Positions 15,349 through 53,650 are shown, counted from the stretch's first letter. The stretch is 64,000 nucleotides of DNA from a candidate division WS6 bacterium OLB20 (GCA_001567355.1 JYNZ01000003.1:179991-243990); one strand, 5' to 3'. Numbers and translations are program-made. Notes: a model not told the origin generated them from the letters alone.

Positions 15349-15354
15349 TCTGAC

Positions 15355-30108: not shown

Positions 30109-31017
30109 CTACTGTAACACCTCGTCTTCGGGGAAGCTTACCGGTGTGCCGGTAATAGTTGGCTGGGTGAAGTCCAGATCTGACGAGTCCCCGTCAAAAA
30201 ACGAACCTCCATTAAGAAATCTGTTCTCAAGGAAATCAATCACAAACTGGTTAGGCACCACCTGCTCAGAAATTCGGGTATAGATACCGTCCAGATCAAC
30301 ACCCTCGTCAACAAAAAACTGGTACTTAACGAGATCCAGCTGTGCACCCCATGATGAACTGCCATCATCCTCTTCGATAAGATTAAGGCTCATCTCACGA
30401 ACAATAAAAAAGTCCTCACCCTGGTAGAGATCGTTCAGAAATGAACGGAAACCATCGAAAGTACCACTGAATCCGAATTCCGACGGTATCTCGATCAGAA
30501 TAAGTCCTTCCGTGACTTCTGCTTCATTCGGATTCTGGTCAATCAGATCCTCTCCCAGCAGCGACGAATCAAGATTCACAGCCCTGAACTCTGCAGTATC
30601 AATAACACGCTGTCGGAATGCAACCACCTCGGATGTACCGGTTGGCACTATCTCATTAATCTTGCTGATGATCTGCTGACGCGTCAGCTGCTCAGCACGC
30701 AGCGCAATCAGACGCTCGATCCGTTCATTGACAGCCTCATCCTCCTCACGCAGAACATTTATCTCATCAATTGTTGTAAAGATACGCTGGATGTTAGGAA
30801 TTACAGTAAACAGGATCAAACCCACAAAGACCACAAAACTGATAAGTGGCAGGGCATAAAACCTGATTGCCTTCCAGGTTTCGGACCAGTCAACAGATGT
30901 GGCATCCTCATCAAAGGAGATCTCAACAAACTCTGTCTGTGACTCACCGCTCAGCACACCCGGTGCTGATTGTGTCTGCTGTTCGTCTGTTGCGGGTGTT
31001 TGTGGTTCTGCTGCCAT
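30109..31017 (-). CDS. pilO: type IV pilus assembly protein PilO-like
   Basis: Single TM (ALPLISFVVFVGLILFTVI), then a coiled coil and a periplasmic domain. Start/stop coupled to pilN. Confidence 0.55.
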   Translation of the reverse strand: MAAEPQTPATDEQQTQSAPGVLSGESQTEFVEISFDEDATSVDWSETWKAIRFYALPLISFVVFVGLILFTVIPNIQRIFTTIDEINVLREEDEAVNERIERLIALRAEQLTRQQIISKINEIVPTGTSEVVAFRQRVIDTAEFRAVNLDSSLLGEDLIDQNPNEAEVTEGLILIEIPSEFGFSGTFDGFRSFLNDLYQGEDFFIVREMSLNLIEEDDGSSSWGAQLDLVKYQFFVDEGVDLDGIYTRISEQVVPNQFVIDFLENRFLNGGSFFDGDSSDLDFTQPTITGTPVSFPEDEVLQ

Positions 31018-31644
31018 TACTGCTGGATAAGATCATTAACTGCGACATCGTCATCAATCTCAACAAAGTTGAAGCTGATGCGCCCCTCAACACGCCTGTC
31101 TGCCTCAAGATCAGTCAGAGGTGCTGACCCTTCATCCGATGATACCTGGGCATTATTAAGCAACACATCCTGGATACCGTCGTATGAGGTAAACCGCCTT
31201 GTGATTTCTGCCATCTGCCGGTACGAAGCTGTAGTTACTGTTACATTGTACTTACCATCCCGGTCGCGGCCGTATCCTTTGATTACAACGCCATCCACAG
31301 GTACCGGAAACAAAGTCTCAGTAAGCTGAAAAACCCGCTCCGGAGCGATATCAAGACCAATAACGTTTGAAAGTGCATTGGTTTTGTGCACCAGCTCTCC
31401 GTTAAGGCGGAGGACATCACTGTATTCATTCTCAATAATAGCTTCCTTATTGGCAATCGAGACCTCCCAGTTAAGTTTGTGCCGGTCCATGACAAGGGTA
31501 TTAAACAGAATGAGAGCAAACCAGAGACAGACAGCAAACAGAGGCAGGACCGCTGTAAACACCGAACTGCGGTCTCGTTCTTCCTCCTTTTGTACCTCCT
31601 CATCAGATTTCTGCGGGAGAAGGTTAAACGTAAAAGGTCTTCAT
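31017..31644 (-). CDS. pilN: type IV pilus assembly protein PilN (5' frameshift)
   Basis: Track ORF 31017..31562 starts at GTG inside the TM helix. The same frame upstream reads RPFTFNLLPQKSDEE..., and NLLP is the PilN N-terminal signature. ATG at 31644 (MKTFYV*) is in another frame. Removing one T from CCTTTTACG gives MKTFTFNLLPQK.... Confidence 0.6.
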
Positions 31645-31645
31645 A

Positions 31646-32686
31646 TTACTGCGTTTTCAGAGCAAGACCCACACTGACGGTAAATCCGACAGTCGAGAGC
31701 TGGGCGACATCCGATTTGATCTTTCCTGCGATCTTAAGCCCTGCGACCGGATCGGTAACCTCAGCCTGGATTCCCAGGTTCGTAGACAGATACTGTGCAA
31801 GTCCCGGCAGCTTGGCACCATCCCCGACAACATAAATCTGCTTGGGTGTGCTTTCCTGCAGGTGGGCGCGGAAGTAGTTGAGTGTTTTGTTTATCTCGTT
31901 AATAATGATCTGCATTACCGGTGCCAGCGCTGCAGCTATCTTTCCGTCAGCCTGATCAGGCACAAGACCATAGGCACGTTTATACTGCTCAGCCTGACTG
32001 TACTGCAGACCGAATTCAGCTGAAATTGCCTTTGTCAGCTCATCACTCCCGGTCCCGAGACTTTGCGAGAAGATCGGAAACTTACCTTTGATTACGCTGA
32101 GATCAGTACCATTCGCTCCAAAATCAATAACCAGCACACTGTCAGAACCGGGGCGGTTAAATGTGATCGAACGCGCTGTCGCCATTGTTTCTGTCTCCAG
32201 TGCTATCAGCTCAAGTCCGGCTTTGCTGATAATTTCCATGTACTTATTAACTACGGTTTTCGGAGCTGCCACCAGCAGAGCCTGGATGAGATTGCGACCC
32301 TCAACGTTTTTTCTGGCGATAGGGATGTAATCAAGCTGCACATCTGACGGTGGGATCGGCAGATACTGCTTGGCTTCGTAGAAAAGTGACTGCTCAAGCT
32401 GGTCTTCCGGAAGATCAGGCAGCAGAATCAGACGGGTGAAGATAGAGGCCTCCGGCATTGCTGCGACCACGTACTTACTGCTGATGCGTGCCGCATCACG
32501 GATCTGTTTGATCTTGTCTGCAAGAATCTGTTTTGAGTTGTCATCCTCTGCCGCAACGGCACTGAACTCAGTGTCGATGCTTCCGATAGCCTCGAGTACA
32601 GCATCATCTGGTCCTTTAACAGATGTCCTCGCCACCTTTATGGTGTGGTTGCCAATATCCAGTCCAAAGAATTCGGGTAGGTTCAT
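31646..32686 (-). CDS. pilM: type IV pilus assembly protein PilM (actin-like ATPase fold)
   Basis: FGLDIGNHTIKVA...VLVIDFGANGTDLSVI...IYVVGDGAKLPGL are the PilM/FtsA phosphate-binding motifs. Confidence 0.75.
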   Translation of the reverse strand: MNLPEFFGLDIGNHTIKVARTSVKGPDDAVLEAIGSIDTEFSAVAAEDDNSKQILADKIKQIRDAARISSKYVVAAMPEASIFTRLILLPDLPEDQLEQSLFYEAKQYLPIPPSDVQLDYIPIARKNVEGRNLIQALLVAAPKTVVNKYMEIISKAGLELIALETETMATARSITFNRPGSDSVLVIDFGANGTDLSVIKGKFPIFSQSLGTGSDELTKAISAEFGLQYSQAEQYKRAYGLVPDQADGKIAAALAPVMQIIINEINKTLNYFRAHLQESTPKQIYVVGDGAKLPGLAQYLSTNLGIQAEVTDPVAGLKIAGKIKSDVAQLSTVGFTVSVGLALKTQ

Positions 32687-32801
32687 GAGCAGTTACGAAT
32701 ATTCATACACTATTCTATGGTGTGTGGTTTGAAGAATCAAGCCGCTTTGTGGGTACAAAAATCTTGCAGCGGTGTATTGATTGAGCAATAATGTCTGTTA
32801 G

Positions 32802-33080
32802 ATGACCAAGTCAACTGTCCCTACAGTGTTATTGTTACTTGCGGTAATCACCCTTATTGCCGGTGGTTTTTTCTATCTGTTCGCACGCGAGCAGCGGCAG
32901 GCGTCGCAGGCAGCGGCAGATCTTGATCAGGATCTGTATGGTTATCCATTTGAGACGCCGACCGATTCGACGTTCACCGAGATTACCCGCGGGACTGTGC
33001 AATCAGTTTCAACATCTGTTGATCTCCGCGACAGACCACGTAATCCAGAGTCTCCAGCTCAGGCGCGATCCCGTCAGTAA
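32802..33080 (+). CDS. small membrane-anchored protein
   Basis: N-terminal TM VPTVLLLLAVITLIAGGFFYLF. 92 aa. Confidence 0.35.
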   Translation: MTKSTVPTVLLLLAVITLIAGGFFYLFAREQRQASQAAADLDQDLYGYPFETPTDSTFTEITRGTVQSVSTSVDLRDRPRNPESPAQARSRQ

Positions 33081-33130
33081 CACTTCGCAGCAACGGCAGC
33101 GATTTCGAATACCGTTTCGATGAGAGTGCT

Positions 33131-33367
33131 GTGCCGGTTCCGGTTGTTGTCCGCGACTGCAGTAAGGCAGAGGAGGGCAACTGTCCTGATTTTGATGTCT
33201 ATCTTACTGCAAGTGACAGCCAGAAGGCGGAAATGATAACAGGAACATTTGCCGGACTTAGCATCACACAGCTGGGGTTTCTTAAAGCCGGTGATGAAGT
33301 CATGATTCTCTCCGAACAGAATAACAGCAACTCAGTTACCTATACTGTTTTTACCGAGAAGCAATGA
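33131..33367 (+). CDS. small hypothetical protein
   Basis: 78-aa ORF with a GTG start. Its end overlaps the next gene start (ATGA). Weak. Confidence 0.3.
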   Translation: MPVPVVVRDCSKAEEGNCPDFDVYLTASDSQKAEMITGTFAGLSITQLGFLKAGDEVMILSEQNNSNSVTYTVFTEKQ

Positions 33368-33909
33368 AACAGGCAGCATCAATCACACTCGCAATCGTTC
33401 TGCTCACCGGTGCGGCAGTGTTGTTTTACCTTGGCTGGCAGGAACTGCAGCAGATCCCTTCGGTCACTCCCGGCACAACGTCAGAATTTAAGCTACCGGA
33501 TGGTTTTTGCATACCCGAGTCAGACAGCTGTGTGATCACACACCATGCTGAGGCCCGGCTTGCCGGCAGTATGCTCAAAAGCGCCGAAGGAGACGTTGTA
33601 AATCTCCTGCCGACTGCTGATCCATTCAGATTCTCGGCAGGGTCAGATGTGACCGGGATGCTGACACTTATCGAAGGAGAAGGCGATGAATCGGTGGCTG
33701 TCCCTGTAAGCTATGACGAGTTAATCAGTCTGTCTGCCGAACGCTGTGTCCGGATGCAGATCAGTTATCTGTACCGTGTCGCATCAGCTGTCACAGTTGA
33801 TACAACCGAACTGACACTTCGAGATTCGCTGCTGAAAATGCGACCATGCGCAACCGAGACAGCCACCGGAACAGACCCGCAATTGATTTTTGAACTGCTT
33901 AACAGATGA
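33364..33909 (+). CDS. membrane-anchored extracytoplasmic protein (first gene of T4P-adjacent operon)
   Basis: Signal-anchor ITLAIVLLTGAAVLFYLGW. ATGA overlaps on both sides. Confidence 0.5.
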   Translation: MKQAASITLAIVLLTGAAVLFYLGWQELQQIPSVTPGTTSEFKLPDGFCIPESDSCVITHHAEARLAGSMLKSAEGDVVNLLPTADPFRFSAGSDVTGMLTLIEGEGDESVAVPVSYDELISLSAERCVRMQISYLYRVASAVTVDTTELTLRDSLLKMRPCATETATGTDPQLIFELLNR

Positions 33910-36496
33910 AACCGAATATTCTGCTTACAATTGTTTTCTCTGCCCTGATAAGCGCAGCTTTCGGATTATTTGCGGCTTCACCTGCCGATGCAGCCATCTC
34001 GTACGCCGGCGGCTGGTATACAAACCTGTGCGGTAACAGCACGGCTGATGCCTACAACTGCCCGGCTAATTGCAACCCTTATAACGGCAGTTGCAGCGGC
34101 AGCTACGTCTACAAATTCACCTGCAACGGACAGACGAATGAGTGTGTTTCAAACGGCACCGGCCCCAGTACGTTTCAGAGTTTTGACACAGGTATCTGCA
34201 ATCAGACACAGCAGATCGATGTCTTTAACCAGAACTGCGGACCGGTCAGCAACTGGCAATGTCCAGGCACAAGTGCTCTGACGGGATTCATGGTGTGGTA
34301 CAAACCATCGTGCTGTCAGAACACATGCCAGGGGGCCCGAGACCCCGAAAAACCGGGCAACCCGTATCCGCATAATGTCACACTCAACAGTTACACAGTC
34401 AACTTCAGCTGGAGTCACAATGATTTCGGCAGCTGCGGAGGCAACACCTGCAACAACACCTGCAACTCCCCGGTCCCCGGCAGTAACAGGTACTCACTGT
34501 ATGTTGATGGTGTCAGAGTATACAGAGGTAATAATAAATCATTCACATACACGGTCACCGGACAGAACCATACATGGTATGTCGTTGCTCACAGCAACTG
34601 CCGCCAGCGCCAGTCAAATACATGGAGCTTCACTGTCAACAGACCCCCGACTGCAGCTGCTCAGATAACCAGTAACGCACTCTGTAATGCCAATCCGGCA
34701 TCACAGGGATGGAGTGGCGTACACCCGCTTAGGGCAGGTTCAGGAAGTGCAGGGATCAACAATCCGCTACAGGTCCGGGCGACATACACTGATCCTGATG
34801 CTCCGCCAATCTGACTCTTCTGCGTGTCTGGTTTGCCGGCACATCACGACCACCATCAAGTGTGTCCAACACTCAGTTTGCAGCCAGCGGTACGGTCCAG
34901 ATGTACAGAACGCCGCAGGGTGTAGAGACATATTATATGTTTGTTGATGCAAACACTTACGAACAGATCACACCCGGCAATGGGAGGGGCATGTGCACTG
35001 TCGCAGGCAACAACCGTGTTCAGTTCTGTAATGTAACGGCACCTCCTTCAAACGCAGTGGCTTTTGCCTATCCTGCCAGCTTCCAGCGCAGCGGTAACAG
35101 TGTGATCGTTAACTGGCAGCTGGGTCTGCTCGGAGCTTCGACGTTTCCGCGTGATAATCAGGTACATGTCCACGCAAGCGACATACCCGGGGCAAACTCA
35201 GGCTGGATTGCAGATGATCTCTGGAAGGTGGATCTTAATCCTCCAGTAGTTGGGGCGACCCTGAATCTGCTCAGTGAGACTTCGTTTAACGTTACATACA
35301 GTGCAAACGACAGCTTAAGTGGTGTACTGGCAACAGCAAAATCATGCAGCTCAAACCTGCAGGGCAACGAATCAATCGTACTGATGCAGGATGCCCCCGC
35401 TGTAAATCCCAACAGCCAGAACTTCACCGGGAGCCAGACGCGGCAGACATGTTTTGACAACGCAACAGGGCAGACCCGTTACTCTGTAAGCAACACCCCT
35501 CGTGACGGATCGTTTTCTTTTGACTGGAATGCAACTGACTATGCCTGTAACCGTGCACCATCAGTAACAGCTCAGTTGCGACTTAAAAAACCCTGGCTCA
35601 TGACAGTCGATGGTGATCTGTTCTCCAGGCTGGGGATAAGTCAGACAACAATTGCAGATATCGAACGTATTCAGAGTCTTTTTCTGACAGACCAGCACAA
35701 CAGGGTACCGTACCTATCAGATTACAACTTCATGAGCGGGCAGAACTCGCTGCCTGCTAGAGACTCTGAACTCGACTTTGCAGTAAGATCCTACCTTGAT
35801 GCAAACGGAAAACCCAGGGACGAACTGGCGTACGAGAGCTGGTACGACCTTGCTGATGCCCAGCTCGAATCAAGACTGCAGGCGTCACAGCAGCTGACTG
35901 CTCAGGGACCGGTAACGTTTGCTGATGTTACGACGCACCAGATCGCGCAGACTCTTGGATCGGCATCTATCCAGCCCGATGGTTTTCCGGCTTCAGAACC
36001 TCAGGATCGCCTGAATGTAATCAGGGTGCAGGGCGACCTGCGTCTTAACAGGGTTACCTGCAACACAAAAACTGTCTTCCTTGTCAGCGGAAACCTTACG
36101 CTTGAGCCAGAGATAGGTCTGCAGGATAATCCCGCTGCTGATATTGTTAACGGCTGTCTGTTCCTGGTTAAAGAGACAACAACCATCCTTCCCGGTCAGT
36201 CTGCGGGAACACCCGGCGACACGACACCAGACTTTGACACTGTTGCAGGATTTATTGTCACCAGGTCCATTCAGATCCCTCCAGATCCTCAGTTCAACGC
36301 ATTGCGTGTAACAGGCTCCATTATCGCCAGCGAAAATAATACGTTCGACAGGGATGCAGGTGTTGTACTTAACCAGCTGTCACCGTCAGAGATCATCTAC
36401 TACGATGGGGGACGGTATATGCATCTGTTTGGCGAAGTACTTTCAATGCCGGTCAGTTTTAACATCGTTGAGAAACCGTTTCTTGATTCGTTCTGA
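33906..36496 (+). CDS. giant Cys-rich secreted protein, paralog A (~860 aa), with an apparent 1-nt deletion near 34803
   Basis: Track ORFs 33906..34814 and 34862..36496. The frame -1 translation bridging them (ANLTLLRVWFAGTSRPPSS) aligns with paralog B (ADLNRLEVWLGDNNSPAPG). Signal peptide, about 30 Cys, an FN3-like segment, and a conserved C-terminal module ending NIVEKPFLDSF. Confidence 0.6.
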
Positions 36497-37011
36497 TGCC
36501 AGCTAAATTATCCGTATTCATCCGATTCTATGTCATCGCAGTGCTGTTGCTGGCGCTGGCCGTATATCTGTCATCAGGAACACAACCGGCAAGACAAGCC
36601 TACACGGGCAGCATTGCTGTCGATCCACAAGCAGGTGAACGGTTTATCACGCACTCAGTCAGTACAGGAACGTTTGTATCGCTAACACGCCCGGAGAGAG
36701 AAAATGATTTTTTTATACTGACACTTACAAGCCCGGAAGGAGAGCAGCAACACAGCTTTGGATCCGGGGAATTCAACTTTGATGCAGTTGTACTGCGTAC
36801 CTGCGCAAATGAGTGTCCTGACTTTCAGACATATATCAACAGCGAAGAGTATCAGTCGCGCCGCCCGCTTGAACCGTTTACGCTGATTACACTCGATGAC
36901 CTGAGAGATGGTGATACAGTCTCACTGGTCAGATCTGCTGCAGGTTCGGTTGCGCAGTCGTATATTCAGGAACAGTCAGAAGTTAAGCTATTTGTAACTC
37001 GCTCACGATGA
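36496..37011 (+). CDS. small membrane-anchored paralog family protein 1
   Basis: N-terminal TM. TLTSPEGEQQHSF...LRTCANECPDF...LFVTRS. Paralogous to 37503..38081. ATGA overlap. Confidence 0.5.
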   Translation: MPAKLSVFIRFYVIAVLLLALAVYLSSGTQPARQAYTGSIAVDPQAGERFITHSVSTGTFVSLTRPERENDFFILTLTSPEGEQQHSFGSGEFNFDAVVLRTCANECPDFQTYINSEEYQSRRPLEPFTLITLDDLRDGDTVSLVRSAAGSVAQSYIQEQSEVKLFVTRSR

Positions 37012-37502
37012 AGACCCAACTGCTCACAGCTGCAATTGCAACAGTCTGCGCATTCTTTCTGCTTGTTGCCTCACAGCCTGCAGCGCCTGAACCCGTTGAT
37101 CTGTCTGTCATTGCCGAAGACACAGGACTCTGTGATAACTCGGACCTGTGCTTCATCGAGTACCAGACAAGGGGTGAATTCACCCGGGGCATGATCGAAA
37201 CCAGGCACCACAGCATTGACCCCGGGGGAGAGGCGGGCTTTGATGTTCAGATCCTCAAGCGCAACAGACAGGACGGGGCGTCTGTATATGAGATCATGCA
37301 ACAGGAGAGTACGGGTAGTGATCCGTTGTGTCTTGATATTCTGCAGGTGGAATATCTTAAAATCCCTGAGGGACAGATCAGTAATGACGATGGAATATTT
37401 GAGCAGGGTATGACCGATGTCTTTGCATATGAGTGCTTTATTGACGGCGAAGAGAGAAGTGATTATCTTGATAATACTATCTTGCTTCAACTGCTCGATT
37501 AA
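37008..37502 (+). CDS. small membrane-anchored family protein 2
   Basis: Signal/anchor LLTAAIATVCAFFLLVASQPA. Cys pairs. ATGA overlap. Confidence 0.45.
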   Translation: MKTQLLTAAIATVCAFFLLVASQPAAPEPVDLSVIAEDTGLCDNSDLCFIEYQTRGEFTRGMIETRHHSIDPGGEAGFDVQILKRNRQDGASVYEIMQQESTGSDPLCLDILQVEYLKIPEGQISNDDGIFEQGMTDVFAYECFIDGEERSDYLDNTILLQLLD

Positions 37503-38081
37503 ATGAAACTGCAAACCGGCACTGTGCTGTTTGTCGTAGCGCTGCTGTTCTTTATCGGCGCAGTTCTGTTTTACGCTGTCCGATCATCAGGCAGCGAACC
37601 GATTGTTACCGAGACTGCTGTATCAGCAGCAGGCTTTCTGTTTGCACCCGAAGAGATGTACTCGCCGCAGGGCGGATTTCAAGGTCCGGCGGGAACACTT
37701 GCTGTATCACAGGAGGTCTTATCGGGCACAATCACCCAGGCAGTATTCAGTTCCAACAAATTCGCCCGCTTCAGTGAGGACTACGCCAGCAACGCCTTCC
37801 TGACACTCACCGTCAGGGGTCCCGAAGGTGACGAGACCAGTCTGACCCTTGAAGACCCCGGCGAGACACTGTTCAGGGTCTGCACGGATGAGGCATCCTG
37901 TCCTGGATTCGCTGATTATTTTGGAGGGCTTGCTGATGCTGAGTTCCGCTATGGTCTGGCAGGAGAAATCCTGCTGGGTGACGAGGTGGTGATTTTCCAT
38001 AGCGTATTTGTCGGATCCGAGCAGGATGCCGCAGCAATCAGCAGCGATTATGATATTTATGTCACACGATATGAACCGTAA
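37503..38081 (+). CDS. small membrane-anchored paralog family protein 3
   Basis: LTLTVRGPEGDETSLTL...FRVCTDEASCPGF...IYVTRY parallels protein 1. Confidence 0.5.
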   Translation: MKLQTGTVLFVVALLFFIGAVLFYAVRSSGSEPIVTETAVSAAGFLFAPEEMYSPQGGFQGPAGTLAVSQEVLSGTITQAVFSSNKFARFSEDYASNAFLTLTVRGPEGDETSLTLEDPGETLFRVCTDEASCPGFADYFGGLADAEFRYGLAGEILLGDEVVIFHSVFVGSEQDAAAISSDYDIYVTRYEP

Positions 38082-38652
38082 TTCTCAGACACTGATAATC
38101 ACAGCAGCAGCACTCATCCTGTTTATCTCCGGTGGAGTGTTTGCAGTTATGGGGCTATCATCCTCAGCATCAGGAAACGATCCTGCTGTGACACTGCTGG
38201 ACAGCATCGGCAGTGAAAATCAGTATCGGGCCTGTTCAGGAAGCGCTGCCGAGGTATGCTTCAGCTGGCAGTATCTGACAGGCAGCTTCGCAGACAACAC
38301 GCTCACCGTGGGCGATGCAAGTCTCACGCTGTCCGGCAGGTACAACCGTGAGACAGATATTGAAGAGATTTCGCGCGATCTTAATGTGATCTATTACAGC
38401 AGGCCCGAGGGTGATCAGCTGACCGGATACCTGCAGACCGATAAGGATACGTTTGTGACTGGATCGACCGGATCCTGTGTTGAGGGTGCTTTCTTCTATT
38501 TTGACAGATTTCCGGCAGGGCTGGACCTGCTGAAGCTGCCTGTAGACGATGGTCACAGAGGCTTTCTGGAGCTGTATCCGTGTGACAGTAACCCGGCACA
38601 GGAACAGTTTTTCAGCTATACTAGACTTGAGCGCCAGCTGATTGATTTATGA
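38071..38652 (+). CDS. small membrane-anchored family protein 4
   Basis: ATG at 38071 overlaps the upstream stop (ATGAACCGTAA). TM IITAAALILFISGGVFAVMG. The track ORF starts earlier at 38008. Confidence 0.45.
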   Translation: MNRNSQTLIITAAALILFISGGVFAVMGLSSSASGNDPAVTLLDSIGSENQYRACSGSAAEVCFSWQYLTGSFADNTLTVGDASLTLSGRYNRETDIEEISRDLNVIYYSRPEGDQLTGYLQTDKDTFVTGSTGSCVEGAFFYFDRFPAGLDLLKLPVDDGHRGFLELYPCDSNPAQEQFFSYTRLERQLIDL

Positions 38653-42998: not shown

Positions 42999-43003
42999 CT
43001 GCC

Positions 43004-45721: not shown

Positions 45722-46254
45722 GTTGATCCTCCTGAAGTGTTGCGAAATCCAAGCAGCTCAGTGCGCTGCATGCCGTTTCTGGATGAGAAGAAGACGACAA
45801 TGGATCGCAGTTCAAATACACCGGGATCGGTCTGATTGACAAGGATCTGATTGCACATAATAAAGTTTGGCAGCTCAGACAGCCGCACCCTGAACTCGGA
45901 GTTTGAATCGCAGGTGGTGATCGGCGTCCTGCTGGTTGTCTGAACAATCTGCAGCTGACATCCGGTTGAACCGGTACAGTTTGACGGATTGACCTCACCG
46001 GTTACCCGGAATGCAAAATCACGCTGACCTGTTGGAAGATTGGTTAACAGCGGAACGACAGCAGGGGATTTCATGTACTCCATCGAGCCGATCATGACAG
46101 AATTTGCGGTATCAGCCAGCTCGTTGTCCTGAACAGTTCTCAGAGAGCTGATCGCAATGGCCACTGTTGCAATCATCGCTGTTCCAAAGATCGCTATCGC
46201 AATGATGATCTCTACAAGTCCGAATGCCTTTTTTGTTACTGCGCGTTTTGTCAT
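45718..46254 (-). CDS. pseudopilin / minor pilin
   Basis: KKAFGLVEIIIAIAIFGTAMIA is prepilin-like (Phe+1 ... Glu+5). Confidence 0.5.
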   Translation of the reverse strand: MTKRAVTKKAFGLVEIIIAIAIFGTAMIATVAIAISSLRTVQDNELADTANSVMIGSMEYMKSPAVVPLLTNLPTGQRDFAFRVTGEVNPSNCTGSTGCQLQIVQTTSRTPITTCDSNSEFRVRLSELPNFIMCNQILVNQTDPGVFELRSIVVFFSSRNGMQRTELLGFRNTSGGST

Positions 46255-46820
46255 TTTGGTGTATACGTGTTGCGCACCGAATTAATCTCGATCGGTCGTA
46301 CCGCTCCAGTCAGCTTATGCCTTACACTGAAGAGGCATGTTACCTCAGAGTAGCTGATCCGGTTACCGGTTGTTGCCTGTGTGCTGGCCTTCATGTCACC
46401 GGTGAGACTCTCAAACAGTACATCATAGCAGCCTCCGCCTGAGAGTACATACTCGATGTCACCGTAGATACTTGACTTGAGCTGCTCTGCTGTTGATGGT
46501 TCACAGGTCCATGAGGTATCGGTTGCTCCGATAGTCCGGTAGCAGAGACTTCTGGTCAGCTGGTTGTTTCTGAAACTGAGATTATAAGCATACACACGTG
46601 TCTGCGTGTTGGTGGTATTCAGGACGATATCCTTTGGAAGCGTATTGCTTTTGGCAAGGTTTCGGGTCTCTTTGATCACGCTCAGCACCTCATTTACCGA
46701 CTGGCTGAATGTAACGGTGCGCTGAAATGACACGAAACCGAAGATTGCGAGGGTTGCAGTCAGTCCGATGATTGCCATGACGATCAGGAGTTCAAAAAGA
46801 CTGAATGCGGGTAGCTTCAC
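46251..46820 (-). CDS. pseudopilin / minor pilin
   Basis: LPAFSLFELLIVMAIIGLTATLAIFGF is a prepilin-type N-terminus. Confidence 0.5.
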   Translation of the reverse strand: MKLPAFSLFELLIVMAIIGLTATLAIFGFVSFQRTVTFSQSVNEVLSVIKETRNLAKSNTLPKDIVLNTTNTQTRVYAYNLSFRNNQLTRSLCYRTIGATDTSWTCEPSTAEQLKSSIYGDIEYVLSGGGCYDVLFESLTGDMKASTQATTGNRISYSEVTCLFSVRHKLTGAVRPIEINSVRNTYTPK

Positions 46821-46876
46821 AGTGTGGACAGTAACTAATTATTCAAATAGTAGGTTGAACGGATACTCCTGTCAAA

Positions 46877-47671
46877 TCAGAAAATAACAGGAATCACTAT
46901 CTGCCCGGCTATGAGCCAGAGCAAAGATCCGGCAGCAAGCACCGTGGCGTAAGGGACCTGGACACGAGGATCTCTTTTTCGTATGAGCAGCACAATGCCT
47001 GCTACTGATCCCGCCAGAGAGCCGAAAAGAACGGCCCAGAACATTCCTGCAAAACCAAGATACGCAGCAGTTGCAGCGGTCAGTACGACGTCCCTGACCG
47101 TAAGCCCGCTGCGGGGTATAAACCGGATGAGCCCGATCAGTAGTGCGAACAGTCCTGAACCGGCTATTGATGAGATCAGATCAGACGCAGTACGAAATCC
47201 ACTCAGGTATTCTGCAGAGACAATCAGCAGAGTCAGCAGAGAAAAAATAACCACTTCCTTTTTGGGCAGTGACATGTACTGATAATCATAGGATGCAAAA
47301 AATATCATCCCTGTCACAAACACTAATGCTCCGGCAAGGGGAAGTACAAACAGCTGCTGCGCGGGATTGTAGAACAGGACAAAAACAAACAGCACAATTA
47401 CAGCTGCTGCCAATTCAATAGCAGGATAGAGGAGAGGAAGACGTTCACCACTGGTTTTGCTTCTGCCGCCGGAAAGAATATAGGAAAACACCGGTATCAG
47501 ATCTGTGCCGGTAAGCACCTCTCCCGTACCGTCTGCAAAAGACCTGCCGCCCAGCGGCATGTTTCTGTAGACACGGTATGTCAGCATATTAACAAAACTG
47601 CCCAGCGCCGCGCCGAGGATCAGCCCCAGAACGTAAGTTATCCCGAACAGCAGCAGTGTTGCTCCTTCCAT
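46877..47671 (-). CDS. pilD: prepilin peptidase (A24 family) PilD
   Basis: Polytopic. FVNMLTYRVY..IPVFSYIL..G.....ERLPLLYPAIELAAA matches the A24 peptidase core. The Cys-box zinc motif appears absent. Confidence 0.6.
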   Translation of the reverse strand: MEGATLLLFGITYVLGLILGAALGSFVNMLTYRVYRNMPLGGRSFADGTGEVLTGTDLIPVFSYILSGGRSKTSGERLPLLYPAIELAAAVIVLFVFVLFYNPAQQLFVLPLAGALVFVTGMIFFASYDYQYMSLPKKEVVIFSLLTLLIVSAEYLSGFRTASDLISSIAGSGLFALLIGLIRFIPRSGLTVRDVVLTAATAAYLGFAGMFWAVLFGSLAGSVAGIVLLIRKRDPRVQVPYATVLAAGSLLWLIAGQIVIPVIF

Positions 47672-48144
47672 CAGATCGAACAGGGTGTTGTAGAAGTACC
47701 GGCCTGAAAATCGTCTCCTGATTCAAGTCTGACCGCGAGTGAATACCCGTCTGTCCGGGAAGCAAAGCAGTATGCGCTTGTATTCGTGGACGTCGTACCG
47801 ACGACCTGAACTCCGTTGGCACCTCCTGGTCCTGCATCATCAGTCTTTGCCGCACCATCAAGCGGAACCAGCACACATTTGTTTTGTGCTGTGCAACTGG
47901 TGACGGGATAATTTGCTGCAATCTCAACATTTTCACCGGCAAACCGGATTCTTGAAGGAAACCTGCCGTCAAGTGTCAGAAAATCGGCGATCCCGGCGTT
48001 AATATCCTGCAGCGCAGCCTTGCGGGCAGTGTCACGGGCGTTTCGCTGAGCAGCGGCAATACCGAACAGCGATAAACCGATCAGAAGACCGATTATCGCC
48101 ATGGCAACAAGCAGCTCGACAAGGGTAAATCCGTGTTTACGCAT
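47671..48144 (-). CDS. type IV major pilin (PilA-like), copy 2
   Basis: MRKHGFTLVELLVAMAIIGLLIGLSLFGIAAAQRNARDTARKAAL is a canonical class III signal and alpha1 helix. C-terminal Cys pair. Confidence 0.75.
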   Translation of the reverse strand: MRKHGFTLVELLVAMAIIGLLIGLSLFGIAAAQRNARDTARKAALQDINAGIADFLTLDGRFPSRIRFAGENVEIAANYPVTSCTAQNKCVLVPLDGAAKTDDAGPGGANGVQVVGTTSTNTSAYCFASRTDGYSLAVRLESGDDFQAGTSTTPCSI

Positions 48145-48181
48145 TGTAATGTATCAAATCCGTTATCAGATTAAACAAATA

Positions 48182-48204
48182 CTGCCGGGTAATCAACCCG
48201 GCAG
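48182..48204 (-). terminator. intrinsic terminator between the tandem pilin genes
   Basis: CTGCCGGG-taatcaa-CCCGGCAG forms an 8-bp stem. On the minus strand it is followed by TATTTGTTT. Confidence 0.5.
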
Positions 48205-48230
48205 TCTTGTGTCTATCAAATCCCGAAAGC

Positions 48231-48743
48231 TTATGGAAGAGCTGGGGGATCACAGCTGGTGTTTGATGTACCACCATCTGCTTTGTCACCGTTCTCAAGG
48301 CGGACAGCCAGTGAGTAACCGTCGCTTCTCGTAGAGAAGCAGAAGGCGCTGGTATTGGTGGATGTCTGACCGACAACAAGGACACTGTTGTTCTGACCGC
48401 CAGTCTGATCCACGCCTGAACCAACTACAGCTGCACCATCAAGCGGAACAGCAACGCACTTGTTCTGTGCGGTACAGTTGGTTGCAGTTACGCTCGCCGG
48501 GTTACGGGCAATGAATACCGTGTCATTGGCAAACCTGAGACGGTCAGGGAATGCTCCCTCCAGGGTCAGGTAATCAGCGATACCTGCGTTGATGTCCTGC
48601 ATTGCTGCTCTGCGAGCAGTATCTCGAGCGTTACGCTGGGCAGCGGCAATACCGAACAGCGACAGACCGATCAGAAGACCGATAATCGCCATGGCGACAA
48701 GCAGCTCCACCAGTGTAAATGCTTTACGTTGTTGCATGAGCAC
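48231..48743 (-). CDS. type IV major pilin (PilA-like), copy 1
   Basis: QQRKAFTLVELLVAMAIIGLLIGLSLFGIAAAQRNARDTARRAAMQDINAGIADYL is near-identical to copy 2 over the first ~60 aa and diverges in the C-terminal globular part. Confidence 0.75.
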   Translation of the reverse strand: MLMQQRKAFTLVELLVAMAIIGLLIGLSLFGIAAAQRNARDTARRAAMQDINAGIADYLTLEGAFPDRLRFANDTVFIARNPASVTATNCTAQNKCVAVPLDGAAVVGSGVDQTGGQNNSVLVVGQTSTNTSAFCFSTRSDGYSLAVRLENGDKADGGTSNTSCDPPALP

Positions 48744-48762
48744 CGTGCATAATAAATAAAAA

Positions 48763-49986
48763 TTAGACGATGTTGGCTACGTTGTAGATGGGCAAATAGA
48801 CTGCTACTGCCAGCAATGCAACGAGACCACCAACTATTAAAAGAATAAGAGGTTCCATAAGCTTTGTCAAATTAGACGTTATCTCCTCGACCTGGTCTTC
48901 GTAAAATCTGGCAAGATCTCCCAGGATCTTTTCAAGTGCTCCTGTTTCTTCTCCGGTGGCAATCATTTTGATCACAATCAATGGCACTACCTTGTTTTTG
49001 GCAAGCGGTCCGGCTATCTGCTGTCCCTTTGCCACCTCCTGAGCGGCATAAAACAGTGCCAGTTTAAAATGAACATTACCCATCGATCTGCCGGTAGCCT
49101 TGAGTGCATCAATAATCGGAATACCGCTTTTGATAAGCATCTGCAGCAGTCGGGTCATCTGCAGTACCTGAGATTTTGCCTGCAGATCACCGAAGACCGG
49201 AAGCCTCAGCAGCAGCTTGTCGACGAATTTTCTTCCGGAATCAGTATTGTAGTAGGTGCGAAAGCCCACAATCGAGGCAACGACGACAAAAATGGTGACC
49301 CCCAGACCCAGCGGGTTTGTAAAGAAGTCGCTGATGGTGACCAGCGCCTGTGTGATGAGCGGCAGTTCAGCTTCTCCATTACTGAGGTCGTTATACAGAT
49401 CCTCAACAGCCGGAATCATAAATACGACAAGCACGATGATCACGATGATGATTGCCAGCAGGATCACAGCAGGGTAGATCATCGCACCTCGAACACGTCC
49501 CCGCAGTTGCGAACTTTTCTGCATGTCCTCTGCAATCTGTGTAATGATCTCTACAAGGTTGCCGGATTTTTCTCCGGCCTCGATCAGACTTAACTGCAGC
49601 TCGTCAAAGATCGCCTTGTGTTTTCCAAACGATGAAGCAAGGGGCAGTCCGCTCTGCACATCTTTGTAAACCTCGGTCAGCTGTTTTTTGAGACCCGAAA
49701 ATTTTGTCTGCTCGACAAGAATCTCGAGTGCCGAGGCAACCGGCAGACCTGCACCAAGCATCGTTGCCAGCTGACGGGTGAAAATAACTTTTTCGGTCAG
49801 AGGAACTCCGCCGATCTGGATGTCACCGAGATTGTCAAAACTGAAACCGATTTTCTGTTCGATCGAGATGACGATCAGCCCCTGCTCATGAAGCATGGAG
49901 ATAATCTCTTCGCGAGTTTCAGCCTGGCGCTCGCCGGCTACCTGTTCACCCGTCGGTTTTGTTGCTCGATAACTGAAGAGCGGCAT
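48763..49986 (-). CDS. pilC: type IV pilus platform protein PilC (GspF family)
   Basis: Duplicated GspF domains, three TM blocks, MPLFSYRATKPTGEQVAGE N-terminus. Confidence 0.75.
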   Translation of the reverse strand: MPLFSYRATKPTGEQVAGERQAETREEIISMLHEQGLIVISIEQKIGFSFDNLGDIQIGGVPLTEKVIFTRQLATMLGAGLPVASALEILVEQTKFSGLKKQLTEVYKDVQSGLPLASSFGKHKAIFDELQLSLIEAGEKSGNLVEIITQIAEDMQKSSQLRGRVRGAMIYPAVILLAIIIVIIVLVVFMIPAVEDLYNDLSNGEAELPLITQALVTISDFFTNPLGLGVTIFVVVASIVGFRTYYNTDSGRKFVDKLLLRLPVFGDLQAKSQVLQMTRLLQMLIKSGIPIIDALKATGRSMGNVHFKLALFYAAQEVAKGQQIAGPLAKNKVVPLIVIKMIATGEETGALEKILGDLARFYEDQVEEITSNLTKLMEPLILLIVGGLVALLAVAVYLPIYNVANIV

Positions 49987-51785
49987 CAGGCAGTATTACT
50001 TTTCATCAGCTGAAGTAATTCATCAGGCTTGGTTGTGTAGGTCTGTGCCTCCTCTATAGTCAGGTCGCCGGAACGCACCAGCTTGATCAGCGATTTTTCG
50101 AGGGGGATCATGCCAAGCTCGGCACTTGTCTGGATCATGTTATCAATCTGGTAGGTCTTTCCTTCCCGGATGGCGTTTTTGATGGCAGCATTGGCGATCA
50201 TTATCTCAAGAACAGCCTTGCGGCCACCACCCTGGATGGGCACAAGCCTCTGAGCGACTACTGCGGCAATCACGTTAGCGAGCTGTGCCCGGATCTGTGC
50301 TTGCTGCTGCTCGGGGAATACGTCTATCATACGGTCGATACTCTGGGCAGCCGAGTTTGTGTGCAGGGTCGAGAATACAAGATGGCCTGTTTCAGCAACG
50401 GTAATGGCTGATGCGATTGTCTCGAAGTCACGCATTTCTCCAACCAGTACTACATCCGGATCCTCACGCAGGGCAGCTCGGAGAGCGCGGGTGAAACTGG
50501 TCACGTCTGTGCCGACCTCACGCTGATCAACAAGGGATTTGGCCCGGGGAAATACGTACTCGATCGGATCTTCAATCGTGATAATGTGCTGTGCCTCAGT
50601 AACATTGATCTCCTGAATGATTGAGGCCAGCGTCGTGCTCTTACCGTGACCGGTCGGACCCGTGACAAGCACAAGCCCGTGCGGAAGTTTTGCGAACTCG
50701 TACATTACCTCTGGCAGTCCAAGCTCGGCAATCGTTCTGATACGTGAAGGGATAAGGCGGAAGGCGCCGGCAAGCTGTCCCTTTTTGTGGAACATATTGA
50801 CCCTGAATCGTGTTCCGCTCTGAATACTGTGCGAGAAGTCGATATCCAGATCGGTTTCCAGTGACTTTTTCTGTTCATCAGAGATGATGGAGTAGAGGAG
50901 TGTCTGCACGCGCTCAAACTGCAGTATCTGACTGCCGATCGGCATCAGTTTGCCGTCTACACGCAGCATCGGCGGGTAGCCTGTGGACATGTGAAGGTCA
51001 GAAGCGCCGCGTTCTTCAGCAAGTGCCAGAAAATCATCCATGCTGGCACGCTGTGCATAATAATCCTCACTTGCATCTTTTGGCTTTAGCCCCACAGTAT
51101 CCGACTGCTGAACCGATTTCTGCTTCTGCTTTGTTTCTGTCAGCTGATCAGCTTTCTGCAGAATCTGTGCCACCTGATCCTCTTTGCCCTGCGCACTGCC
51201 GGACAGCTCAACTTTTTGTGACTGAGTACCGTTATCAGGCAGCGGTGGCAGAGATGTACTGGCTGACTGTGCTGACGGCTGCGGCTGCAATTCCGGCTCG
51301 GGAACCATAGCTGCCGCCGGTGTTGTGACATCAGCAGGCGCTGCTTCATTTACGGCTGCTGCCGGTGCCTGCAGGGGTGCTGCCGGTGCAGAAGCCTGGG
51401 CTGTATTGTCAACTGTCATAACGGATTCTGCCGGTGTCTGCTGCGTCGCAATCTGCATACCGTCATCCGGAACCAAAGCGGCTTCGGGCATCTGCGGAAC
51501 AACAGGCTGTGCAGCCGGTTCAGGCTGTTGTGACTGCTGCGCAAGCTCTGGCTGCGGCATATCTGTGACAGGTTCGGGTGCATTTGCAGGCTGCTGCATC
51601 TGTTGTGGAGGTTGCTGTTCATCTGTCGCTCCCATGGCAAGCGGATCTGATATCGGCTCTGGTGCCTGCTGTGCAGGCGCAGACTGTGTCTGCTGCTGGT
51701 CAACAGCGGGCTGTGCAGTCACAGGCTGCTGAGCGACTGATGGATCAGATGTTTGTGCGGGACTGCTAAGGTCAATAAAGGGCAT
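49986..51785 (-). CDS. pilT: twitching-motility retraction ATPase PilT with a ~240-aa Pro/Gln/Ala-rich N-terminal extension
   Basis: The core from MDDFLALAEERGASDLHM onward shows LVLVTGPTGHGKSTT (Walker A), ITIEDPIEYV, VVLVGEMRD and His-box TLHTNSAA. The 240 residues before it are low-complexity and stop-free. Confidence 0.75.
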   Translation of the reverse strand: MPFIDLSSPAQTSDPSVAQQPVTAQPAVDQQQTQSAPAQQAPEPISDPLAMGATDEQQPPQQMQQPANAPEPVTDMPQPELAQQSQQPEPAAQPVVPQMPEAALVPDDGMQIATQQTPAESVMTVDNTAQASAPAAPLQAPAAAVNEAAPADVTTPAAAMVPEPELQPQPSAQSASTSLPPLPDNGTQSQKVELSGSAQGKEDQVAQILQKADQLTETKQKQKSVQQSDTVGLKPKDASEDYYAQRASMDDFLALAEERGASDLHMSTGYPPMLRVDGKLMPIGSQILQFERVQTLLYSIISDEQKKSLETDLDIDFSHSIQSGTRFRVNMFHKKGQLAGAFRLIPSRIRTIAELGLPEVMYEFAKLPHGLVLVTGPTGHGKSTTLASIIQEINVTEAQHIITIEDPIEYVFPRAKSLVDQREVGTDVTSFTRALRAALREDPDVVLVGEMRDFETIASAITVAETGHLVFSTLHTNSAAQSIDRMIDVFPEQQQAQIRAQLANVIAAVVAQRLVPIQGGGRKAVLEIMIANAAIKNAIREGKTYQIDNMIQTSAELGMIPLEKSLIKLVRSGDLTIEEAQTYTTKPDELLQLMKSNTA

Positions 51786-51820
51786 GGTTGTATCGGACTA
51801 AGCAAAAACTAATTCAACTG

Positions 51821-53650
51821 TTAACTGACAACACGCATAACTTCTTCAAGTGTCGTGATGCCTTCCAGCGATTTAAGGAAACCGTCCTGCATCATCGTGA
51901 TCATTCCCTCCTTGATAGCTTCTTTTTCAATCTCCTGTGCAGAACTTGTCGAAATGGTAAGGTTGCTGAGCGTCTCTGTCATCTTCATTACTTCAAAAAT
52001 ACCGATCCGGCCTTTATACCCCGAATCTCCGCATTGCGGACAGCCTTCACCCTTGTACAGATTTATCTTACCACCATTTTTTTGCAAGAGCGAGTCAAAG
52101 CTGAATCCTGCAATAGGATCAAGAACCTCGCGCAACTTTGCGAGCTGCTCCTCGTTGGCGATATATGATGTTGTACAGTGTTCGCAGATTTTCCGGACAA
52201 GACGCTGTCCGGCAGCAAGTTCAAGTGTTGAGGCCAGCAGAAACGATTCGATACCCATATCCTTAAGACGGGGGATAGCGCCAGCGGCACTGTTGGTGTG
52301 CAAAGTGGCAAGCACGAGATGACCGGTCAGTGAGGCCTGAACGGCAAGCTCTGCTGTTTCCATGTCACGGATTTCTCCGACGAGGATGACATCAGGATCC
52401 TGCCGCAGAAACGCACGCAGCCCCTTGGCAAAGGTAAGACCGACATCAGCGTTTACCTGCACCTGCGTGATGCCGTCAATCCGGATCTCAACCGGATCCT
52501 CAAGTGTCATAATGTTGATTTCGGGTTTATTAATGATCTTGAGAGCAGAGGCGAGCGTCTGGGTTTTACCGGAACCCGTCGGACCGGTTACCAGCAGAAT
52601 TCCCTGCGACTGTCTGATCGCCTCATCAAACATCTGGAAGTTCTTTCCACGCAGTCCTGTCTGGTCAAGTGTAAGCGTTCCGCCTCCTTTTGCCAGCAGA
52701 CGGATCACCACTTTTTCTCCATACACCGAGGGCATGATCGAGACACGCAGATCAATCAGATCGGCGTCCACTTTTATCTGAAAACGTCCGTCCTGCGGAA
52801 CGCGGTGTTCATCAATCTTAAGATTACTCAGAATCTTGATACGCGACACAATAGGTCCGGCAAGCTTGGGCGGTAGTGTGAGTTTTTCCTGCAAAACGCC
52901 ACTGATACGGTAGCGGACAACGACCCTGGTTTCGCGCGGTTCAATGTGTACGTCAGATGCCTTGTACTTGGCGGCATATTCCAGAATCATATTCACAATC
53001 CTGGAAACAGGGGCTGATGTGATACCACCCTGCACATCGGATCCTATCGTACCGGAGACTTCAACGACCTCACCCACATCTTCGAGCGCCTCAGTGACAG
53101 AGGTCCCGATCTGGGCACCATACTTGGTATCAATAATTCCCTTGATAGTTGTCGGGTCACCAAACGCGGGTTCGACCCGCTTGCCGATCATGGTGCTTAA
53201 AAACCGCACCTTCTGCAGATCAAGCGGATCCACCATTGCGACCTTGAGCCCGTTACTGGTTTTTTCGTACGCTACGGCCTGATTGCGCTGGGCGACATCC
53301 TGGGGGATCTCGTTGAGGACCTCGATATCAATCCTCATGGCACTCAGATCGACAAAGGGCATGTTATAGACCTCGGCCTTTGTCTGGTAGATATCTTTTT
53401 CAGAAACATATCCGCCACCGACGACTACCTGTTCTACAGGTTTTCCGGTATTAATCGCCTCAAACTTGACCTTTTTCAGGGTGTCGGCATCAATCTTACC
53501 CTTGTTGAAGAGAATGTCGGCGATGTTCTGTCCGACTGCCGCAGAGGCAGATCCCTGGACGGGAGGTTGCACAGGCTGACCTGGATTATTTACGGGAAGC
53601 CCCGCTTGCGGTAAACTGGAGTCAGTATTCCCGCTGTTTGCGCTTGCCAT
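51821..53650 (-). CDS. pilB: type IV pilus extension ATPase PilB (GspE family)
   Basis: N-terminal GspE_N region. ILLVTGPTGSGKTQTL (Walker A), ILVGEIRD, TLHTNSAAGA, and tetracysteine CEHC...CPQCGDSGY. Confidence 0.8.
   Translation of the reverse strand: MASANSGNTDSSLPQAGLPVNNPGQPVQPPVQGSASAAVGQNIADILFNKGKIDADTLKKVKFEAINTGKPVEQVVVGGGYVSEKDIYQTKAEVYNMPFVDLSAMRIDIEVLNEIPQDVAQRNQAVAYEKTSNGLKVAMVDPLDLQKVRFLSTMIGKRVEPAFGDPTTIKGIIDTKYGAQIGTSVTEALEDVGEVVEVSGTIGSDVQGGITSAPVSRIVNMILEYAAKYKASDVHIEPRETRVVVRYRISGVLQEKLTLPPKLAGPIVSRIKILSNLKIDEHRVPQDGRFQIKVDADLIDLRVSIMPSVYGEKVVIRLLAKGGGTLTLDQTGLRGKNFQMFDEAIRQSQGILLVTGPTGSGKTQTLASALKIINKPEINIMTLEDPVEIRIDGITQVQVNADVGLTFAKGLRAFLRQDPDVILVGEIRDMETAELAVQASLTGHLVLATLHTNSAAGAIPRLKDMGIESFLLASTLELAAGQRLVRKICEHCTTSYIANEEQLAKLREVLDPIAGFSFDSLLQKNGGKINLYKGEGCPQCGDSGYKGRIGIFEVMKMTETLSNLTISTSSAQEIEKEAIKEGMITMMQDGFLKSLEGITTLEEVMRVVS

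Follow-up and report, generated by a model that had tools for sequence, protein, structure and literature searches.

The window, i.e., the whole stretch of DNA analyzed here, comprises 64 kb from candidate division WS6 bacterium OLB20. Proteins encoded in it are identical (100% in sequence comparison) to TR69_WS6001000574, _581, and _587 of OLB20, which is a CPR/Dojkabacteria (WS6) bacterium. The closest complete genome is that of a Candidatus Dojkabacteria MAG (CP129475.1), the PilM of which is 77% identical. The genes follow the order nusB-rnc-rpsP-khpA, pilO-pilN-pilM, an accessory operon, the minor pilins with pilD-pilA-pilC-pilT-pilB, and holB-gyrB, and this order is kept in the related loci L001, L003, and L008. 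A partial contig, L004, agrees with the layout from pilN to the minor pilins, and both L006 and L008 possess the same type IV pilus (T4P) core as the window. The preliminary description of this DNA had listed pilM, pilN, pilO, pilB, pilT, pilC, pilD, and pilins, and every one of these genes was found where it had been placed.

Genes of the pilus core

The two motors, the platform protein, and the prepilin peptidase are encoded on the minus strand. The extension ATPase PilB (51821–53650) matches T2SSE (2e-130) and MshEN (7.8e-16), contains a CxxC...CxxC (Zn-finger) motif, and scores 559 bits (9.2e-168) on TIGR02538, which is under the equivalog cut-off of 675.65 bits. A look-up of the exact PilB sequence returned no record; the start-codon choice is probably different. 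The retraction ATPase PilT (49986–51785), in which the motif AIKNAIRE was read, scores 453.5 bits (4.9e-136) on TIGR01420, compared to a cut-off of 319.1. This alignment covers residues 249–589 and is preceded by an N-terminal extension of 248 aa. The extension starts with MPFIDLS, a peptide that L003 and L008 share and that reads MPLISL in L006. An ORF-calling artifact was considered as the source of the extension and rejected, given that three other loci conserve its first residues. The conserved peptide and the disordered linker could represent a new tether of the retraction motor to the machine. The platform protein PilC (48763–49986) contains two T2SSF stretches (4.4e-53) and matches the GspF and PilC models at 1e-86 to 4e-89, under the equivalog cut-offs. 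The peptidase PilD (46877–47671) matches A24_N_bact (2.1e-15) and, under the cut-off, Peptidase_A24 (9e-4). It has six transmembrane (TM) segments, and its catalytic Asp pair, D129 and D194, is invariant across four orthologues.

The pilM, pilN, and pilO genes are also on the minus strand. PilM (31646–32686) is an actin-like ATPase-fold protein, as indicated by matches to PilM_2 (3.9e-46), to TIGR01175 (186 bits; cut-off 133), and to the PDB entries 2ych (1.4e-37) and 3jc8 (1.7e-30). The pilN gene (31017–31644) is interrupted. The T4 run at 31632–31635 contains one extra T, which creates a 1-nt homopolymer frameshift, and the listed ORF (31017–31562) is the 3' part of the gene. When one T is removed, pilN reads MKTFTFNLLPQKSDEEVQKEEERD.., in agreement with the PilN of L001 (MKSFTFNLLPKKTKEEVQKEEERD), an intact orthologue. 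The corrected product carries the N-terminal motif FNLLP, which is also found in the PilN of L006, followed by a single TM segment, and it is encoded after pilM. The NLLP motif of PilN reportedly binds PilM, as described for 2ych and 5eou. PilN showed no significant HMM match and no Pfam match of its own, and a Pfam search with four PilN orthologues at E ≤ 5 gave nothing useful. Sequence searches of the PDB with restored PilN, PilO, and the PilO family profile returned noise. The assignment of 31017–31644 as a putative PilN is supported by its motif, TM topology, and syntenic position.

PilO (30109–31017; 302 aa) is a bitopic protein with one TM segment at residues 49–81. It too showed no Pfam match of its own and no significant HMM match. 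Its AF2 model, of low confidence (pLDDT 53), shows two alpha-beta-beta units after a long helix, and the best Foldseek matches of this pLDDT-53 model are the PilO structures 3jc8_Oa and 2rjz (probability 0.82–0.98, E 0.02–0.07). Weak signals were obtained with the NCBIfam GspM model (0.003), with Pfam PilO in one of seven PilO homologues (0.006), and with PF04350 in the syntenic homologue of L006. The gene is syntenic with pilM-pilN in L001, L003, L004, L006, and L008, and its product exceeds PilN in size, as is the case in monoderm systems. The identification of PilO is supported by the agreement of these signals, none of which is significant alone. At the edge of the locus, rpsP (29473–29829, plus strand; Ribosomal_S16, 3.4e-24) and khpA (29864–30094, plus strand) face pilO convergently; the latter, a KH protein gene, was read in the sequence, and its syntenic orthologues carry PF13083. 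The earlier observation that pilO is followed by these genes rather than by pilP-pilQ was borne out.

Five canonical prepilins with class III signal peptides are encoded between pilC and the accessory region, all on the minus strand. The major pilin paralogue 1 (48231–48743; 170 aa; N_methyl 1.7e-7; leader QQRKA↓FTLVE) matches Geopilin (1.9e-5), Thermus thermophilus PilA (1.2e-3), and Streptococcus sanguinis PilE1 (0.017) in the PDB, and it is 69% identical to paralogue 2 (47671–48144; 157 aa; N_methyl 1.8e-8; leader MRKHG↓FTLVE). Two of the minor pilins have weak N_methyl matches: a 189-aa protein (46251–46820; 0.0062; leader MKLPA↓FSLFE) with orthologues in relatives, and a 178-aa protein (45718–46254; 0.0077; leader KKA↓FGLVE) with orthologues in L001, L003, L004, L006, and L008. 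The third (44039–45721; 560 aa; N_methyl 4.9e-6; leader KRLQG↓FSLVE) is modular, with a pilin part of ~190 aa and a Cys-rich C-terminal module (22 Cys); its residues 9–190 are 67% identical to a 209-aa protein of L001.

A fourth minor pilin and the accessory operon

The three minor pilins claimed in the preliminary description were found to be the canonical ones, and a fourth, non-canonical minor pilin had been overlooked. This protein (43004–43936, plus strand; 310 aa) has a pilin fold and a prepilin-like leader, and its gene occupies the GspK/PilX position. It lacks Glu5 and has an invariant Gln at +1. Its family, with 234 cluster representatives, is distinguished by a conserved leader, [G/A]↓QIL, and by a beta-sandwich add-on, and one homologue bears a ConA/LamG-type lectin module. 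At the sequence level, none of the PilX_N, GspK, and N_methyl models matched the protein. Compared to GspI/GspK of type II secretion systems (T2SS) and PilX of T4P, it differs by the +1 Gln and the extra beta-sandwich domain. In L006, the direct neighbors of the gene are the minor pilins on one side and pilM on the other.

In the window, pilM and the fourth minor pilin gene are separated by a lineage-variable accessory operon (32802–42998, plus strand). Six of its genes encode small, N-terminally anchored proteins (32802–33367, which is frameshifted; 33364–33909; 36496–37011; 37008–37502; 37503–38081; and 38008–38652). Two others encode large, Cys-rich secreted proteins (33906–36496, frameshifted near 34800, and 38649–42998), which are paralogous and share a common C-terminal domain, located at residues ~1350–1449 in the product of the latter. 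N-terminal TM or signal segments were found in all accessory products, and Cys counts mark the two large ones as Cys-rich. None of the operon proteins matched Pfam or NCBIfam models, a Pfam search with five of the small proteins at E ≤ 5 gave nothing useful, and a search of the PDB with the 1449-aa protein found nothing. Queried with orf544, a word-indexed search gave at least two hits. In the OLB20 annotation, PilO, the 310-aa pilin, and one large accessory protein are listed as hypothetical proteins.

The operon had been proposed to provide envelope-spanning or anchoring parts. As its last gene is the fourth minor pilin, the most likely purpose of the operon changes. We consider it unlikely that the operon encodes a conduit through the wall in place of the secretin. 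In Dojkabacteria loci, it always occupies the interval from pilM to the minor pilins, every product carries an N-terminal anchor or a signal peptide, and the passage of monoderm pili across the wall is an open question in the literature (PMC6916266). However, several observations speak against such a role. First, the gene content differs among L001, L003, L004, and L008; L008 retains a single gene of the operon and L006 none, even though both carry the same T4P core, and in L006 the pilin-fold gene is present next to pilM. Second, copy number and length vary widely (836 to 1449 aa), with a 450-aa insertion in one paralogue. Third, the large proteins, with Sec-type signals that can be cleaved, lack a membrane anchor. 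Fourth, the accessory proteins of the window and L003 share ~27–33% identity or none that is detectable, while PilB, PilC, PilM, and PilT are 69–75% identical. This pattern is that of exposed, diversifying proteins and not of a conserved conduit. Judging from genomic context and evolutionary rate, the operon most likely encodes surface-exposed or pilus-associated accessory proteins, such as adhesins or host-recognition factors.

Type and state of the pilus system

Frameshifts of 1 nt were found in pilN, orf92/orf78, and orf302/orf544, and interruption of pilN and two accessory genes would be expected if the locus were a decaying, non-functional pilus system. This explanation is very unlikely: tyrS, an essential gene, has a 1-nt frameshift of the same kind elsewhere in the window, all remaining pilus genes are intact, and L001 has uninterrupted orthologues. 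The frameshift sites in the window are 23305, 31632–31635, ~33040–33130, and ~34800. The OLB20 assembly (BioProject PRJNA274364) was generated from IonTorrent PGM data, and its authors described persistent frameshifts (PMC4821891). The frameshift in pilN is probably an IonTorrent artifact, and the breaks in pilN and tyrS are to be taken as a correction of detail. Stop-codon recoding of the split genes was also considered and rejected, as the breaks are changes of frame and not in-frame stops, and the standard genetic code was verified in the source paper (PMC4821891).

Less probable still is that the locus, instead of a type IVa pilus (T4aP), encodes a T2SS or a competence pseudopilus of the Com type. 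PilB and PilC score almost equally on the GspE and GspF models, and CPR bacteria are thought to take up DNA via pili (PMC6744442). However, a T4aP may itself serve in DNA uptake, which is therefore no argument for a different machine. A PilT-family retraction ATPase scores above the curated cut-off, PilM-PilN-PilO are present, and neither GspC, GspD, nor GspL was found at the locus. Compared to the minimal Com pseudopilus (ComGA/GB/GC-GG and ComC), the locus differs by having PilT and PilM-PilN-PilO, which Com systems lack (PMC6916266), and the ComGA/GB models score far below those of PilB and PilC.

As had been claimed, no secretin-like ORF is encoded in the window: searches with the Secretin and PilP Pfam models at E ≤ 0.01 gave zero matches among non-shadow ORFs of at least 200 aa in the whole 64 kb. 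TsaP and pilotin were likewise not found in the window, neither PilQ nor PilP was seen in loci L001, L003, L004, and L008, and no secretin was called in these or in L006. What comes after pilO, in the window as in the four related loci that cover this region, is either convergent housekeeping genes or the operon's end. A CPR-wide survey that included Dojkabacteria genomes found PilB, PilT, PilC, PilM, PilN, PilO, and PilD and no PilQ (Meheust et al. 2019, PMC6744442), and a second report described the same condition across CPR (PMC7143001). T4P are a hallmark of the phylum and are functional in Saccharibacteria (PMC13293708, PMC11623550), and pili have been observed on other CPR cells (PMC13293708). 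Monoderm T4aP are characterized by the lack of PilP and PilQ, a PilO larger than PilN, and modular minor pilins (PMC6916266). The least probable explanation is that the organism is diderm and encodes PilQ (plus PilP/TsaP) outside the window, since, even though the window represents 64 kb out of a ~1.0–1.4-Mb genome and some diderms carry pilQ apart from pilB/T/C, diderm T4aP loci normally continue from pilMNO directly into pilP-pilQ, which neither this locus nor four related ones do, no PilQ was found in the CPR-wide surveys including Dojkabacteria (PMC6744442), and the size of PilO relative to PilN and the modular pilins follow the monoderm pattern (PMC6916266).

A secretin elsewhere in the OLB20 genome is excluded through the literature on the clade alone, and it is from this literature that the envelope type is taken. 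The earlier inference of an outer-membrane-less, CPR-type cell was right, because the window belongs to WS6 OLB20, a CPR/Dojkabacteria genome. The secretin-less interpretation is correct but not new, because the CPR surveys already report no PilQ. Absence of the secretin is an ordinary, already published condition across CPR and monoderms, and this main claim changes nothing; the useful yield lies in corrections of detail. We conclude with high confidence that the window contains a chromosomal T4aP locus of a WS6/Dojkabacteria CPR bacterium built on a monoderm (single-membrane) plan.

Compared to the T4P of other CPR/Patescibacteria, i.e., those of the same radiation surveyed by Meheust et al. 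and locus 1 of Nanosynbacter lyticus TM7x (Grossman et al.), the locus shows the same co-localized PilB/T/C/M/N/O/D with several pilins and no PilQ (PMC6744442, PMC11623550). It differs in that the OLB20 set lies in one locus, split by a Dojkabacteria-specific accessory operon, and in having two tandem major pilins and the long N-terminal extension of PilT. The monoderm T4aP of S. sanguinis and Clostridia (Pelicic 2019, PMC6916266) also exhibit PilMNO without PilP/PilQ, a PilO that exceeds PilN in size, retraction powered by PilT, two paralogous major pilins, and four core plus large modular minor pilins, and the lectin module on one homologue of the 310-aa pilin is reminiscent of S. sanguinis PilC. 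However, identity to these systems is very low, PilN and PilO of OLB20 are unrecognized by Pfam models, the leader and add-on of the fourth minor pilin family are its own, and the CPR envelope is not a classical Gram-positive wall. The diderm T4aP of Pseudomonas aeruginosa, Myxococcus xanthus, and T. thermophilus (PilMNOPQ) share homologous PilB/T/C/D/M and pilins, the NLLP motif of PilN, and the PilO fold, whereas the OLB20 window is without PilP, PilQ, TsaP, and pilotin and has convergent rpsP/khpA where pilP-pilQ would be expected.

The pilus may work as follows. PilD would cleave the class III leaders of the two major and four minor pilins. The four minor pilins, i.e., the three canonical ones and the 310-aa protein without Glu5, would prime assembly of the filament and form its tip cap, a role that we infer for them. 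PilB would power polymerization on the PilC platform, inside a PilM-PilN-PilO sub-complex of the cytoplasmic membrane, and PilT would power retraction. The PilP linker and the PilQ secretin would be dispensable, since the filament has no outer membrane to traverse.

A possible tip-displayed adhesin system

The [G/A]↓QIL protein may represent a family of fourth minor pilins not described before and lying outside every Pfam and NCBIfam model. In Dojkabacteria, its gene may have recruited an expanding, fast-evolving operon encoding large, Cys-rich secreted proteins and small, membrane-anchored partners. The C-terminal domain shared by the large proteins may serve as a docking domain, and these proteins could act as host-recognition adhesins exposed at the tip of the pilus, i.e., as functional analogues of PilY1 without homology to it. 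Taken together, the new fourth-minor-pilin family and the recruited tip-adhesin operon form a tentative proposal that is more doubtful than probable. If the accessory proteins are indeed adhesins displayed at the tip, they would be candidate determinants of host specificity in an uncultured lineage of episymbionts.

Pilus genes, envelope and the missing secretin

Pfam and NCBIfam scans of all plausible ORFs in the window bore out the pilus genes of the preliminary description at their coordinates. The reverse strand carries pilB (51821-53650; T2SSE at 2e-130 plus MshEN, TIGR02538 at 9e-168), pilT (49986-51785; TIGR01420, 453.5 bits against a cut-off of 319.1), pilC (48763-49986; two T2SSF domains), two major pilins of 69% mutual identity (48231-48743 and 47671-48144; N_methyl), pilD (46877-47671; A24_N_bact at 2e-15, invariant D129 and D194), three minor pilins (46251-46820, 45718-46254 and 44039-45721; N_methyl) and pilM (31646-32686; TIGR01175 above cut-off, PDB 2ych at 1.4e-37). 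As described, the pilO ORF is convergent with rpsP (29473-29829) and a gene for a KhpA-type KH protein (29864-30094). A secretin and PilP had been reported missing, and neither model was matched at E<=0.01 among non-shadow ORFs of at least 200 aa in the 64-kb window.

Three proteins encoded in the window show 100% identity to TR69_WS6001000574, _581 and _587 of candidate division WS6 bacterium OLB20 in NCBI (744,746-bp contig), and the nearest species-representative genome is the complete Candidatus Dojkabacteria MAG CP129475.1 (PilM, 77% identity). This places the window in a CPR/Patescibacteria genome, and the earlier proposal of a CPR-type cell lacking an outer membrane is correct in taxonomy and envelope, yet previously published. 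Across the CPR as a whole, PilB, PilT, PilC, PilO, PilN, PilM and PilD co-localise and PilQ is reported missing (Meheust et al. 2019, PMC6744442), with a matching observation for one complete Microgenomates genome (PMC7143001); a 2026 review treats the type IV pilus (T4P) core set as a phylum hallmark (PMC13293708), and pili have been shown to be functional in Saccharibacteria (PMC11623550). Monoderms have no PilP or PilQ because they have no outer membrane, and PilMNO serve there as assembly components; in these systems PilN is smaller than PilO, and minor pilins are often large and modular (Pelicic 2019, PMC6916266). The window resembles them in having no PilP or PilQ, in a PilO of 302 aa exceeding a PilN of ~208 aa, and in a modular minor pilin of 560 aa. 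Six related loci show neither pilP nor pilQ, and absence of pilQ from the whole genome rests on these loci and the literature. A missing secretin in a CPR pilus locus is unsurprising and already known.

PilD is the least conserved machine part (31-37% identity), and its N-terminal domain, which usually bears a CxxC...CxxC zinc motif, has lost every Cys of that motif in the window and in CP129475.1 and keeps them in the related locus L003. Three of the five canonical prepilins (48231-48743, 46251-46820 and 45718-46254) have Ala in place of Gly at -1, just before the point where PilD is predicted to cleave. At its N-terminus PilT carries a long extension of 248 aa (51042-51785) that is rich in P/Q/A/T and probably disordered. 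The start of this extension, MPFIDLS (MPLISL in L006), is kept in four loci (the window, L003 16055-17734, L006 3954-5327 and L008 14885-16459), and a box 'AQGKE.QVAQILQKADQL' is common to the window and L003. The 560-aa third minor pilin (44039-45721) consists of a pilin part of ~190 aa, which shares 67% identity with a protein of 209 aa in CP129475.1, and a Cys-rich C-terminal module of ~370 aa with two internal repeats, which is absent from CP129475.1 and locus L004 and of other length in L003.

PilN, PilO and probable assembly frameshifts

Neither PilN nor PilO had a Pfam match, and both were therefore examined by other tests. The listed pilN ORF (31017-31562) is missing its N-terminus. 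Read directly, the DNA has an ATG at 31644, right after the pilM stop, and then a T4 run (31632-31635); deleting one T yields MKTFTFNLLPQKSDEEVQKEEERD..., which runs on into the listed ORF and agrees with the intact PilN of CP129475.1, MKSFTFNLLPKK.... In the restored protein the NLLP motif, which is characteristic of PilN, precedes a single TM helix. PilO (30109-31017) also has a single TM helix, and in its AF2 model, which is of low confidence (pLDDT 53), a long helix leads into two alpha-beta-beta units. Its best Foldseek matches among 350,542 PDB chains were PilO structures, 3jc8_Oa from a model of the M. xanthus machine and 2rjz from P. aeruginosa (probability 0.97-0.98), but with E of just 0.02-0.07. 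NCBIfam GspM was matched at 0.003, one of seven PilO homologues matched Pfam PilO at 0.006, and the syntenic L006 orthologue matched PF04350 weakly. These tests, individually non-significant, agree with one another and with gene order on the identity of PilO.

The extra T in pilN is one of four apparent 1-nt frameshifts in the window, all with intact orthologues in CP129475.1. The others lie in tyrS (~23305; 23300-23312), where tblastn with that orthologue changes frame at one nucleotide; in orf92/orf78 (~33040-33130), splitting a gene of ~190 aa; and in orf302/orf544 (~34800; ~34795-34862), which joined equal a single 868-aa gene of CP129475.1. The breaks are treated as artefacts rather than gene decay, because tyrS, an essential gene, is also broken and the OLB20 assembly was built from IonTorrent PGM data, in which frameshifts persist according to the authors of that genome (PMC4821891).

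Elsewhere in the window, 10680-21839 (+) encodes a histidine kinase and response regulator, then a row of large proteins (610, 413, 294, 451 and 1392 aa) that are secreted and mostly lack annotation, with CarboxypepD_reg, SdrD_B and fn3-like domains, and may be a second surface-protein cluster. The tyrosyl-tRNA synthetase (22121-24114, +; 18400-20391, -, in the CP129475.1 locus) has an N-terminal B3_4 domain (Pfam 1.4e-11), which PheRS normally carries in its beta subunit. In the related complete genome the fusion forms one 663-aa ORF. Downstream of gyrA and greA, a tyrosine recombinase (61279-62418, -; Phage_integrase 1e-31, N-terminal SAM-like domain) could be XerC/D-like or mark a mobile-element edge.

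A fourth minor pilin and the accessory operon

The three canonical minor pilins stand as described, and a fourth, encoded at 43004-43936, had been overlooked. First, its 310-aa product shares with nine close homologues an invariant N-terminus, a K/R-rich leader ending in G before QILVIVLLVLSI. Its family has 234 members (profile search of 1.84 billion representatives), and 141 of 156 fetched members have a basic leader, G or A before the cleavage site and then Q-I-[L/M]...; position +5 is Ile or Val instead of Glu, which makes this a GspK/PilX-type class III signal. Second, its AF2 model (pLDDT 78) combines a 56-residue N-terminal helix with a beta domain. Third, the more distant L006 has the order pilB-pilT-pilC-pilA-pilD, three minor pilins, the 310-aa pilin gene and pilM-pilN-pilO, all on one strand. 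On these grounds the protein is a pilin, the fourth core minor pilin.

Within the family, the residue before cleavage is G in 85 members and A in 56. A 540-aa homologue from a JGI contig (P0015) has a C-terminal Laminin_G_3/ConA-like lectin domain (2.1e-21), and some others are as long as 660-1128 aa; adhesion modules thus seem to have been grafted onto this pilin.

The accessory operon between pilM and this pilin gene (32802-42998, +) encodes small proteins with N-terminal anchors as well as one or two that are large, Cys-rich and secreted, the large ones having a C-terminal domain in common. The preliminary description, which counted the pilin gene as the last of the operon, proposed the operon as a candidate source of envelope-spanning or anchoring parts. 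That role is improbable, because the operon is dispensable in relatives, as an obligatory conduit would not be, and evolves faster than the pilins. L006 has no accessory gene and L008 one (579 aa), compared to five to ten in CP129475.1, L003, L004 and the window; between the window and L003, the large proteins share ~30% identity and the small ones are undetectable, against 42-55% for pilins and 69-75% for PilB, PilC, PilM and PilT. Exposed, diversifying, pilus-linked proteins fit these data better than an obligatory envelope conduit.

Judged by homology, prepilins would be processed by PilD, and the two major pilins polymerised by PilB on the PilC platform inside a PilM-N-O sub-complex, with PilT retracting the filament. 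The four minor pilins may prime and cap the filament, by analogy with published T2SS and T4P work, and, from the literature on this clade, the filament would cross only a wall or S-layer; more speculatively, the accessory proteins could act as adhesins.
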